This document shows positions 40,001-43,000 of a stretch of 64,000 nucleotides of DNA, one piece after another. This DNA is from Acholeplasmataceae bacterium (GTDB lineage: Bacteria; Bacillota_I; Bacilli_A; Acholeplasmatales; Acholeplasmataceae): positions 704,001 through 768,000 of the forward strand of contig OY775910.1 of NCBI GenBank assembly GCA_963675245.1, given 5' to 3'. The first letter of the stretch is position 1. Every line of letters begins with the position of its first letter. Made by a program: the position numbers.

Positions 40001-43000
40001 ATATTGAAAAACATATATCAAACATCAAGGGATTTGGTTTGAATTATGTCATTGCGTTAAATCATTTTGAAAGTGACGATCAAGAAGAACTTTCACTGAT
40101 TCTCGATTGGGCAAAAGAACATAACCACCCTATTGCATTATCTGACGGTTTCTTAAAAGGTGCTACAGGCATGGTTGAACTCGCGAAGCTCGTTGACGAA
40201 GAAAGTAACAAACCAAATCAATTTAAACATACATATCAAGAGGAAGATTCTATACAAGAAAAAATTGAGAAAGTAGCACAAAACATTTATGGAGCAAGCC
40301 GCGTTGTATTCTTTAAAAAAGCGAGAGAACAACTAGAAACGTATCAAGCATTAGGTTGGAATATGCCAGTATGTATGGCAAAAACACCATTATCACTATC
40401 AGGAGATGCTAGTGTTGTTGGTGTTCCAAAAGATTTTGTTTTAGAAATTACACAAGTTAAACCATCTATGGGAGCGGGATTCTTTGTTGCTCTCACAAAG
40501 GGTATTATGACAATGCCAGGTTTAAATAAAGCACCACGTGCACTTGATATGCGTGTGGATGAAAACGGAAATTTAATTGAGGGGTGAAGAGATGATATTA
40601 CTTGATGGTAAAGGAACAGCAGAACGTATCAACGCGCAATTGAAGTTGCGTATTGAAGATGCAGAAAAAACATATGGAAGAAGACCAAAACTAGATGTGA
40701 TTTTAGTGGGTAATCATCCAGCAAGTCTTTCTTATATTCGTGGGAAAGAAAAAGCGAGCAAAAAAGTGGGTATGCTTTATGAATTGCATCATCTCGATGA
40801 AGATGTAACTCAAAAAGATTTAGAAGACTTGATTGATCAATTAAATGCTGATCCTAAAGTTGATGGTATGATATTACAACTACCTATTCCCGATCATTTG
40901 GATGAAATGTCTTTAATTAACCGCATTAGTAAAGATAAAGATGCCGATGGGTTTCACGTCATTAATCAAGGAAACATGTATCAAAAAAGAAAAGCGATAC
41001 ATCCAGCAACACCACAAGGCATTATGATGTTGTTAGATGCATATAACATTGATGTAAAAGGAATGAACGCGACAGTTATTGGACGTTCCAATATTGTTGG
41101 ATTTCCAGTTGCTAGATTATTGATGGATCGACACGCGACTATCACTGTATGCCATTCAAGAACGAAAGACATGAGTGAACATACAAAGAATGCTGATATT
41201 ATTGTTGCTGCAGTTGGGGTGCCTAAATTACTTAAGAAAGATATGGTTAAGCCAGGGGCAATCATTATTGATGTAGGTATTAATCGCGTTGAAGGAAAAC
41301 TTATTGGCGATGTTGATTTTGATAACTTGAAAGAGGTCGTTGGCTATATGACGCCAGTTCCCAAAGGCGTGGGTCCAATGACAATTTGTGCATTGATGGA
41401 TAATACATTTACGCTTTATCTTTCACATGAAAACAAGCATTAATATTTTCATACATTTCTTCCTTTACAAACACCTTTAGTGGTTGCTATAATGGGGATG
41501 TATGAAGTGATCGTATATACCATCTAATAGGGGTGATGGTGTTTCTACCATAGTGCCGAAACATTATGACTACGATTGAAACATTACATGTTATGTAACG
41601 TGGAGAAGAGCGAAGCTTTTTACAAAACAGGGGACCAGGACGATAAGTAACATCCGATGGTACCGAAAAAACATCCACTTTTCGGATGTTTTTTTATCGG
41701 TTTTAAGTTAAAATAGGTGTGTAAACTAAATCAAAGGTGAAAAAAATATGAATATTTGGCATGACATTAGTAAAGAAAGAATTACACCAGATCATTTTGT
41801 TGCGTGTATTGAAATATCTAAAGGATCAAAGAAAAAGTATGAACTTGATAAAGAGACGGGCATGATTATTCTTGACCGTGTTCTTTTTACATCAACTCAT
41901 TACCCTGCAAATTATGGGTTTATTCCAAGAACATATGCAGACGATAATGACCCGCTTGATGTGCTAGTTTTATGTCAAGAAGACATTGAACCATTGTCAA
42001 TCGTGAGAGTTTATCCGATTGGTGTGATGAAGATGATTGACTCTGATGAAATCGATGAAAAAATCATCGCGATTCCATTTGGTGATCCATCACTCACACA
42101 ATACAAAGATATTAAAGAATTACCAAATCACTTATTATCTGAAATGAAACATTTCTTTGAAGTATACAAATCACTTGAAGGAAAAAGAACATACATTTTG
42201 GATGTTGAAGGTCCAAAAGCTGCAAAAGAAATCATTGCAAAAAGCATGAGAGTATACGAAGAAAAATTTGGGAAATAGAGGTCAAACCGATGGGAAGAGC
42301 ACATGAAGTTAGAAAGGTTGCGATGGAAAAAACCGCAGCTGCAAAATCAAAGTTATACGCAAAGTATGGTAAAGAAATATACATGGCAGCAAAAAGTGGT
42401 GAACCTGATCCTGATTTGAATCAAACGTTAAAACGATTGATTGAAAAAGCAAAGAAGGAACAAGTAACTGCGGATGTCATCAAGCGCGCGATTGAAAAAG
42501 CGAAAGGCGGCGGCGGCGAAGATTATTCTTCAGCACGTTATGAAGGATTTGGTCCTGGCTCAAGTATCGTAATTGTTGAATGCTTAACAGATAACGTGAA
42601 TAGAACGATTGCTGAGGTTAGAAACTGCTTCACAAAGACTGGTGGAAAAATCGGTGTAACAGGTTCTGCAACACACATGTTTAATCATCAAGCATTCTTC
42701 TCGGTAGCGAACATTACTGAAGATGAAGTACTTGAAATTTTAATTGAAAATGACATTGATGTATCTGATATTGAAAGTGACGAAGAAGGTGTTACAATCA
42801 TTGGCGAATCAACCGATTATAACAATATTAAAACAGCACTTTTAGATAGTAATCCAGAGATGGATATCACAACAGATGAAATCATGTGGTTACCAATGAT
42901 GGAAACAGAGTTAAACGATGAAGAAAAAGAGAAGTTTGAACGTCTTCTCGACTTACTCAATGAATTAGACGATGTTCAAGACGTTTATCACAATGTCGCT

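Follow-up and report, generated by a model that had tools for sequence, protein, structure and literature searches.

What is a guanine-type aptamer doing upstream of ppa, the gene of a soluble inorganic pyrophosphatase, in a bacterium of the Acholeplasmataceae? The survey's finding for this locus, which lies within the 64-kb stretch of DNA analyzed here (the window), was that a guanine riboswitch in the ppa leader controls the gene. Part of this is borne out, as the aptamer lies upstream of ppa and ligand-dependent read-through (ON) is predicted in most relatives; however, ppa has a promoter motif of its own, and "riboswitch in the ppa leader" is an incomplete description, since a conserved 3′ domain predicted to pair with a small RNA (sRNA) had been overlooked. 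The reading that we favor, with a probability of roughly 0.55, is that a guanine aptamer has been fused to a RosA-like sRNA sponge, whose terminator would also tune ppa-yebC. For this reading, the aptamer, the promoter motifs, the terminator, the homology to pbuG leaders, the sRNA gene, the complementarity and the covariation in trans come from sequence analysis, and the direction of the switch comes from folding models, whereas we infer that the RNAs are expressed, which of them controls the other, and what metabolic purpose is served.

As seen in Table 1, the aptamer belongs to a predicted RNA between fhs-folD and ppa. Its promoter, P1, is kept across 31 aligned leaders, the 5′ GUAU at the predicted start is conserved in the leader alignment, and the closing helix P0 is 87.9% paired in alignment A1. 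A terminator scan from the folD stop to the aptamer RNA detected none; therefore, the fhs-folD mRNA probably shares the terminator of the aptamer RNA. That terminator is present ahead of ppa, as the survey had reported, although 52 nt and not about 45 nt separate its end from the ATG. The ppa product matches PF00719 over its full length (202 bits), has PDB relatives with a full-length alignment to 1ude, and finds its nearest relatives in the Acholeplasmataceae. Together, ppa and yebC probably form one transcript, with glyA and an Rnf cluster further downstream. Three further purine aptamers occur in the genome, in front of purE, an NCS2 permease gene (here "pbuG") and guaB. The genome also encodes hpt, and the PPi-PFK (NF010675, over cut-off), PPDK and membrane pyrophosphatase (PPase) attributed earlier to the same cell were all found, with an ATP-PFK in addition.

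Table 1. Features of the ppa locus and of the predicted partner sRNA (positions within the window unless stated)
Feature	Position	Strand	Remarks
fhs and folD	38995..41443	+	Upstream neighbours of the aptamer RNA
Promoter P1 of the aptamer RNA	41464..41493	+	TTTACA-18 nt-TGc-TATAAT; 11/12 consensus matches plus TG
Predicted ~196-nt RNA	41500..41695	+	From G41500 (putative start) to the U-tract; deduced from promoter and terminator
Helix P0, 5′ strand	41500..41508	+	Partner 41615-41623 in the ligand-free model; common to pbuG leaders
Guanine-I aptamer core P1-P2-P3	41510..41576	+	Rfam match 41491-41592; from sequence, U22 41516, A23, U47 41542, U51 41546, A73, C74 41570
CGUGGA, predicted antiterminator	41599..41604	+	In the model, pairs with CUACG of P1 (ligand-free) or with terminator UCCAC 41674-41678 (P1 formed)
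G-rich site A	41628..41634	+	Complements the 3′ C-rich seed of the partner sRNA; cofolding
Site B, 14 nt	41642..41655	+	Perfect complement of the 5′ seed region of the partner sRNA
Intrinsic terminator	41665..41695	+	Terminator scan; also upstream of ppa in aptamer-free genomes
Promoter P2 of ppa	41706..41714	+	AGt-TAAAAT; TGn-TAAAAT in most relatives; no clear -35
ppa	41748..42278	+	Family I soluble inorganic pyrophosphatase, 176 aa; PF00719 over cut-off
yebC/pmpR	42290..43006	+	Begins 11 nt past ppa
Terminator closing ppa-yebC	43018..43036	+	Terminator scan
Partner sRNA gene, ~105 nt	C1 300449-300553 (outside the window)	-	Promoter, three hairpins, two single-stranded UCCCC seeds, terminator

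The identity of the aptamer agrees with the earlier description of a canonical guanine type with the C discriminator and 62 bits: the match to RF00167 (Rfam Purine) scores 62.2 bits against a gathering score of 37 (E = 2e-8), and C74 is in place. The loop-loop GG and CC are present, and L3 is one base short. Of 58 distinct leaders (4 unparsed), nearly all the parsed ones retain the ligand core, with position 48 variable. In the covariation analysis, P2 and P3 exhibit two-sided changes at 13 of 14 pairs, and the loop-loop pairs are formed in 95.5%. The marks of guanine-II, xanthine-II and 8-oxoG aptamers (insertions in J2/3 and J3/1, U51G, loss of U47) are absent from the core table of the 58 leaders. 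By sequence, the aptamer is guanine-I in every test applied, and in none does it resemble the variants described in the accessible parts of PMC9295807 and PMC10556655; we consider it very probably functional, as a predicted sensor of guanine or hypoxanthine. Only Purine was credible in an Rfam scan of the leader, with no match to the fluoride riboswitch. A second known aptamer or a T-box in the linker was discarded: the Rfam matches there are at chance level only, and the UGGUACC stretch is confined to two of the three closest genomes.

To see how this arrangement is distributed, 108 of the 151 family genomes in which ppa was found (out of 172) were examined, leaving out 40 small g2 genomes and 3 partial matches; for genomes outside the main sets, scoring relied on a whole-genome Rfam search or on a pattern only. 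In 51 of the 108, ppa is directly preceded by an aptamer that scores above the Rfam cut-off, namely in 10/10 genomes of the window's genus (g1), 31/36 of g5, 6/8 of g20 and one each of g7, g16, g17 and g18, and four additional genomes carry a decayed aptamer with the downstream part kept. The survey's count of 12 in 39 therefore stands for all 10 genomes of the genus but understates a wider distribution. Its sister-family cases, with a switch about 1.6 kb upstream, have to be withdrawn as ppa switches: in all six genomes of the sister-family genus g26, this is the ordinary switch of an NCS2 purine permease lying before ppa, and the permease gene ends at the terminator that precedes ppa. Within the family, the aptamer element has been lost or has decayed several times, and pbuG with its own switch is found at another site in 10/10 genomes of the window's genus. 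A tie of the switch to the membrane PPase was rejected, since its occurrence in 30 of 51 genomes with the switch versus 12 of 57 without is confounded by clade and one complete genome has the switch and lacks the membrane PPase.

Several observations indicate that ppa does not depend on the aptamer RNA for its expression. An extended -10 motif was found between the terminator and ppa, 28 to 45 nt before the ppa start, at 50 of 57 loci and in all gene arrangements (with the switch, 28/31; behind pbuG, 5/5; behind folD with a gap, 6/9; with folD abutting ppa, 4/5; behind other genes, 7/7), against a background of 6 in 545 operon-internal genes of the window's genome. The pattern excluded TATAAT, which three of the misses carry. 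According to the accessible part of PMC4493692, extended -10 motifs form part of RpoD promoters in a related phytoplasma. Moreover, in two pairs of near-identical sister genomes (G101 and G028; G107 and G104) the aptamer RNA is present in one member only, while both keep terminator and promoter. The motif, together with the loss of the aptamer where terminator and promoter persist, suggests that the aptamer sits in a separate unit and that any control of ppa would act only on top of basal transcription from P2, the putative promoter of ppa itself.

The structure of the leader points to its origin. Leaders of ppa and pbuG have the 5′ start and the P0 partner in common, and both form a P4 hairpin downstream of P1 and contain an anti-P1 segment. 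Anti-P1 of the pbuG leaders is followed by a terminator, and their P4 loop is rich in U. In ppa leaders, what was this terminator has decayed into a hairpin that lacks the U-tract; their P4 loop, except in g1, has a G-run, and a 3′ domain occupies the place of the permease gene. The shared features and the gene order in g26 suggest that the ppa leader derives from the leader of a pbuG OFF switch.

The 3′ domain carries a conserved motif, GGGGAUA(A/G)GUA(A/G)CA, for which neither a cis helix nor an open reading frame (ORF) accounted. A stop occupies the third triplet in 50 of 54 leaders, yet no start or frame is conserved, and a small ORF was dropped; a cis helix between the G-rich motif and P2 showed no covariation by inspection, and a CsrA sponge was set aside, CsrA not being found in the window's genome. 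When 307 genomes of the order were searched with the pattern, a second copy of the motif emerged, usually one per genome and also in genera that lack the switch. In the window's genome, the copy lies between topA and a peroxiredoxin gene, and the opposite strand carries a putative sRNA gene (Table 1) whose layout of promoter, hairpins with two seeds, and terminator recurs at 20 loci of this family and of two others and whose hairpins covary. Rfam gave two chance-level matches on these 20 loci (E up to 1), neither of them RsaE. The sRNA was found in 43 of the 51 genomes with the switch and not found in the other 8, and it was found in 0 of 22 leader-free genomes of the same ppa clade (65 to 99% complete, five of them at least 97%); the clade was taken from a quick tree, the 22 genomes represent a handful of independent losses, and the filters miss weak matches. 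In g14, g19, g9, g6, g3 and a number of genomes from other families the sRNA occurs without the leader, so that it is probably the more ancient component. Among candidate mRNA targets in the window's genome, upp ranked first with accessibility counted, but as a conserved target it was rejected (mean -8.8 with the sRNA versus -6.7 without), and for folD, fhs, yebC and glyA pairing was not conserved across the genomes compared; hence, no conserved mRNA target was found among these five. Further candidates in the window's genome are nrdE and a gene for a deoxynucleoside kinase.

The claim with the best support among the new ones, and one that we hold with high confidence from sequence comparison, is that the leader pairs with this sRNA in trans. 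Apart from the sRNA locus itself, the longest perfect complement of the seed on the two strands of the window's genome lies in the leader (14 nt; the next is 12), and the leader's duplex beats all 1453 gene-start regions on duplex alone; once accessibility is counted, five mRNA start regions outscore it. In 31 of the 38 genomes with both partners, cofolds join site B to the 5′ seed region and site A to the 3′ seed, in antiparallel order (mean -17.3 kcal/mol); site B of the window has two mismatches in the G-run. Cognate pairs of leader and sRNA exceed all 10,000 permutations in paired columns and in energy, in the 38 genomes and also in 20 g5 genomes alone, although these values are overstated because kin are not independent. 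A compensatory change is seen in G118, with C-G in place of the U-A found elsewhere; one paired column reads A-U in 16, G-C in 18 and G-U in 4 of the 38 genomes, with no mismatch; and G113, G123 and G134 have matched changes at the duplex edge. The 456 core cells comprise 407 Watson-Crick pairs, 38 G-U, 5 A-C and 6 others, and the asymmetry of G-U over A-C is one that RNA pairing should produce, whereas a DNA motif should not.

Next, the direction of the switch was predicted by folding each leader up to a cut at which the 5′ arm of the terminator has emerged, with the aptamer free or fixed, and scoring the accessibility of the arm. Only cuts ahead of the terminator's 3′ arm separate the two states; full-length folds do not, controls included, and in them the terminator forms with or without the aptamer. 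The pbuG controls behaved as OFF switches in 21 of 22 cases and as ON switches in none (2 of 24 were dropped, with no detected terminator), and the single purE control gave no OFF shift. Outside g1, 38 of 44 ppa leaders were ON and none OFF at the early cut, in rows that include near-copies, and 37 were ON and none OFF at the later cut; the shift occurs nearly always through pairing of GGGUUGUUU with the terminator arm. Changing the G-run abolished it in 14 of 18 cases, and among 144 linker shuffles 31 were ON-like and 18 OFF-like, with 3 as large as the native shift. The consensus fold of 33 leaders is the ligand-free form with anti-P1 and terminator, and the antiterminator helix is 96% paired with a single two-sided change. 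The antiterminator G-run could instead be a third sRNA site.

The window's genus is less consistent. Its ten leaders gave 6 ON and 1 OFF at the early cut and 3 of each at the later one, and the slight shift in G005 is in the opposite direction. In the window's RNA, accessibility went from 0.71 to 0.56 at one cut and from 0.69 to 0.68 at another, a weak effect: at the early cut the terminator arm is open in the ligand-free fold and paired in the bound fold, whereas five bases further on the terminator loop is paired with the 5′ end in either state. Leaders of g1 have no P4 G-run, and their P4 region tends to match their own terminator (p 0.03, 7 representatives). Given the mixed result in g1 and the loss of the window's shift at the later cut, the prediction of direction is strong for the clade and weak for the window: in these models guanine-ON read-through is somewhat favored for the clade, and for the window's own RNA its odds are slightly short of even. 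On average, the ON pattern survived the blocking of sites A and B (0.65 to 0.30). The opening energy of the two sites is 10.0 kcal/mol in either ligand state (of 34 leaders, 4 open more easily and 4 less), so any gating of the sponge by ligand must be indirect; the P4-loop G-run is unpaired at 0.85 in the free state and 0.48 with the aptamer fixed.

Taken as a mechanism, our favored reading would proceed as follows. P1 would make the ~196-nt RNA, whose 5′ half is the aptamer with a competing ligand-free fold (P0 and anti-P1) and whose 3′ half holds sites A and B. At low levels of purine base, P0 and anti-P1 would form, leaving the terminator free to fire, and a short RNA with a paired 5′ end would accumulate and sequester the sRNA, as RosA does RoxS. 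With guanine or hypoxanthine bound, P1 would form, and the freed segment would pair with the terminator's 5′ arm, allowing read-through into ppa-yebC; such read-through from the strong P1 would add to the basal output of P2 and reduce the short form. Transcript length, exposure of the 5′ end and the P4-loop G-run are candidate indirect gates of the sponge. Salvage by phosphoribosyltransferases releases PPi and is reversible, and free base can thereby signal an excess of PPi, so that high free purine base may bring more pyrophosphatase and pull Hpt-type salvage forward. A PPi-dependent nucleoside kinase is known from A. laidlawii. That the aptamer chooses between a short form that titrates the sRNA and read-through into the pyrophosphatase gene, letting free purine base steer an sRNA regulon in a wall-less bacterium, is a tentative proposal that we put somewhat below even odds; it would represent an OFF riboswitch rewired after its gene moved away, with the free base possibly a proxy for PPi excess.

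The same elements can be arranged differently. If the leader were itself a target of the sRNA, it could act as a two-input attenuator of ppa-yebC, in which guanine and the sRNA together set read-through on top of basal P2. Such an attenuator would fit the position of site B, which ends about 10 nt ahead of the terminator in the window's genus, the predicted ON direction, the joint absence of leader and sRNA from 22 genomes of the clade, and the failure to find a conserved mRNA target among upp, folD, fhs, yebC and glyA. However, the ON pattern persists when A and B are blocked, so the model contains no second input; the presence of the sRNA in genera without such a leader implies that it has other targets; and a long two-site complementarity away from any ribosome-binding site is, in the accessible part of PMC8216469, a feature of RosA. 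We regard the attenuator as unlikely, at somewhat better than one chance in five. Less probable still, at about one in six, is a stand-alone sponge with a constitutive terminator and ppa as a mere neighbour, in which guanine would alter RNA stability through loss of P0 or hide a third, G-rich toehold in the P4 loop. Terminator and P2 are indeed found in every gene arrangement, full-length folds include the terminator with or without the aptamer, the layout of the sRNA gene is identical (promoter, RNA, terminator, promoter of the next gene), the P4-loop G-run changes its pairing with ligand state, and site B is retained in three of the four leaders with decayed aptamers. Against it stand the consistent ON shift through one segment, which is lost when the G-run is changed and is opposite in the pbuG controls, and the P4 region of g1, which even without a G-run tends to match its own terminator.

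An ordinary guanine-OFF riboswitch of ppa, of the kind in front of pbuG and purE, would agree with the usual role of guanine-I aptamers, which is to repress, according to the accessible part of PMC9295807, and the order aptamer, terminator, gene is the usual one. Nevertheless, OFF folds were obtained for 0 of 44 leaders outside the genus and for 1 of 10 within it (3 of 10 at the later cut), against 21 of 22 true OFF switches; the pbuG-type terminator beside anti-P1 has decayed, with no U-tract; and sites A and B would be left unexplained. We consider this very improbable. Repeated loss and decay of the element, together with pbuG and its own switch elsewhere in 10/10 genus genomes, would suit a relic left when pbuG moved away, and a DNA motif shared by both loci (a protein site or a duplication) could also be imagined. 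The kept ligand core in nearly all parsed leaders and the covariation of P2 and P3 argue against a relic, and the preponderance of G-U over A-C among the differences between the loci argues against a DNA motif, leaving this pair of explanations the least probable of all, at a few chances in a hundred.

If the fusion of guanine aptamer and sRNA sponge is real, a ligand aptamer and an sRNA sponge, devices known apart, are joined in one RNA, and a riboswitch can be traced through a change of polarity and role that followed the loss of its gene, since the same genomes still contain ancestor-like pbuG leaders. Purine status would then be tied to PPi hydrolysis in cells whose energy donors include PPi, and purine levels may steer both a pyrophosphatase and a small-RNA network. 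The Acholeplasmatales also gain an uncatalogued conserved family of C-rich sRNAs, whose rare natural trans-compensatory mutations make the pairing directly testable.

A literature search of openly accessible papers, whose supplements could list the leader in association tables, returned no purine riboswitch linked to ppa, in agreement with the survey; it likewise returned no purine riboswitch described in Acholeplasma and no sRNA sponge bearing an aptamer. The parts are of known kinds, whereas their union, the predicted reversal of polarity and the partner sRNA family appear undescribed, the last with no search aimed at it. Like the guanine-I riboswitch (RF00167) of the pbuG/NCS2 leaders, the ppa leader has three stems, U22, U47, U51, C74 and the GG/CC loop pairs, and it has in common with them the promoter-proximal start, the P0 ends, the P4 hairpin and anti-P1; it differs in its decayed OFF terminator, its predicted ON direction, the ppa promoter and the added sRNA-pairing domain. 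ON polarity has been described, in the accessible part of PMC9295807, for guanine-II and xanthine-II aptamers, which carry junction insertions that are absent from the ppa leader. Fluoride riboswitches upstream of pyrophosphatase genes (PMC11139923, accessible part) exert ON-type control of a pyrophosphatase, as is predicted for the ppa leader, with a different aptamer and signal and without a match in that leader.

The 3′ domain is closest to RosA of Bacillus subtilis, a stand-alone RNA of ~229 nt that pairs through its G-rich regions with C-rich ones in RoxS (PMC8216469, accessible part). As in the systems RosA/RoxS/FsrA and RsaI/RsaE of Staphylococcus aureus, as far as the accessible descriptions go, the leader would be an RNA of about 200 to 230 nt that has a promoter and a terminator and contains two or three G-rich regions, of which two are predicted, following the architecture described there, to pair antiparallel with two C-rich regions of an sRNA. 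It has the layout of a sponge, with its own promoter and terminator and no conserved ORF, and the pairing of one, as its G-rich regions complement the C-rich regions of the sRNA and are conserved in trans. The partner resembles the RsaE/RoxS type in its single-stranded UCCCC seeds between hairpins and in having its own promoter and terminator, but it is not matched by RsaE or another credible Rfam family. RosA is under CcpA, and the accessible part of PMC8216469 does not mention the word "riboswitch"; the ppa leader instead contains a metabolite aptamer. Riboswitch-derived RNAs that act in trans are known as SreA/SreB (SAM) and Rli55/EutX (B12), in which the ligand sets the form of the transcript (PMC13501541, accessible part), and the partners recorded for such RNAs in the accessible parts of PMC13501541 and PMC10877136 are mRNA or protein. 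Within those accounts, SreA acts by pairing with an mRNA and Rli55/EutX by sequestering a protein, whereas the predicted partner of the ppa leader is another sRNA.

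The C-rich sRNA whose seeds are complementary to the G-rich sites A and B of the ppa leader is uncatalogued, and its gene, of approximately 105 nt and located downstream of topA, is kept across a large part of the family; a few other families of the order also have it in some of their genomes. Four leaders carried a decayed aptamer. Both site B and the sRNA were retained in three of these genomes (G019, locus L014; G140, L243; and G142, L244); in the fourth, G030 (L011), site B was altered and a search for the sRNA did not find it. In G013 (L022), promoter P1 and the terminator were kept, separated by just a short unrelated stretch, and this locus possibly corresponds to a late stage of leader loss.

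Other candidate sites for the sRNA were also observed. Two G-runs, with a spacing like that of sites A and B, lie upstream of the nrdE (ribonucleotide reductase) start, and nrdE ranked high among the predicted targets in G000, as did the genes for a deoxynucleoside kinase (L421) and for a phosphonate-binding protein (L423). The folD ribosome-binding region was among the better matches to the second seed in G000 and several genomes of genus g1; the match was not kept family-wide. Seed complements were also seen in intergenic DNA of G062 and G014, both lacking the ppa leader, where they are possible independent sponge or target sites.

Features of the ppa locus and of related loci
Feature	Location	Remark
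sRNA gene	L321:950-1054, minus (G000 C1 300449-300553)
nrdE start	L422 around 270-316 (G000 C1 986915)
folD ribosome-binding region	window 40547-40591
Intergenic seed complement, G062	L430 around 1501
Intergenic seed complement, G014	L432
Purine aptamer before purE	L001 (G000 C1 599137)	72 bits
Purine aptamer before NCS2 permease	L002 (G000 C1 830460)	70 bits
Purine aptamer before guaB	L004 (G000 C1 1305059)	35.8 bits, below the cut-off of 37
hpt (HGPRTase)	window 25596-26030, minus	15 kb from the leader
429-aa ORF	window 35648-36937, minus	resembles ISL3-type transposase (by eye)
UGGUACC	window 41658-41664	immediately 5' of the terminator

Regarding the other purine aptamers of this genome, no obvious terminator was seen at guaB. 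At loci L063, L066, L069 and L115-L120, the gene order was folD-purB-flavodoxin-switch-permease-ppa-yebC-pyrR-glyA-rnf. This purine, pyrimidine and one-carbon cluster may represent the ancestral state of the ppa locus.

The UGGUACC stretch has the sequence of a T-box antiterminator bulge. Only two genomes carry it, both among the three closest, and it probably arose by chance.
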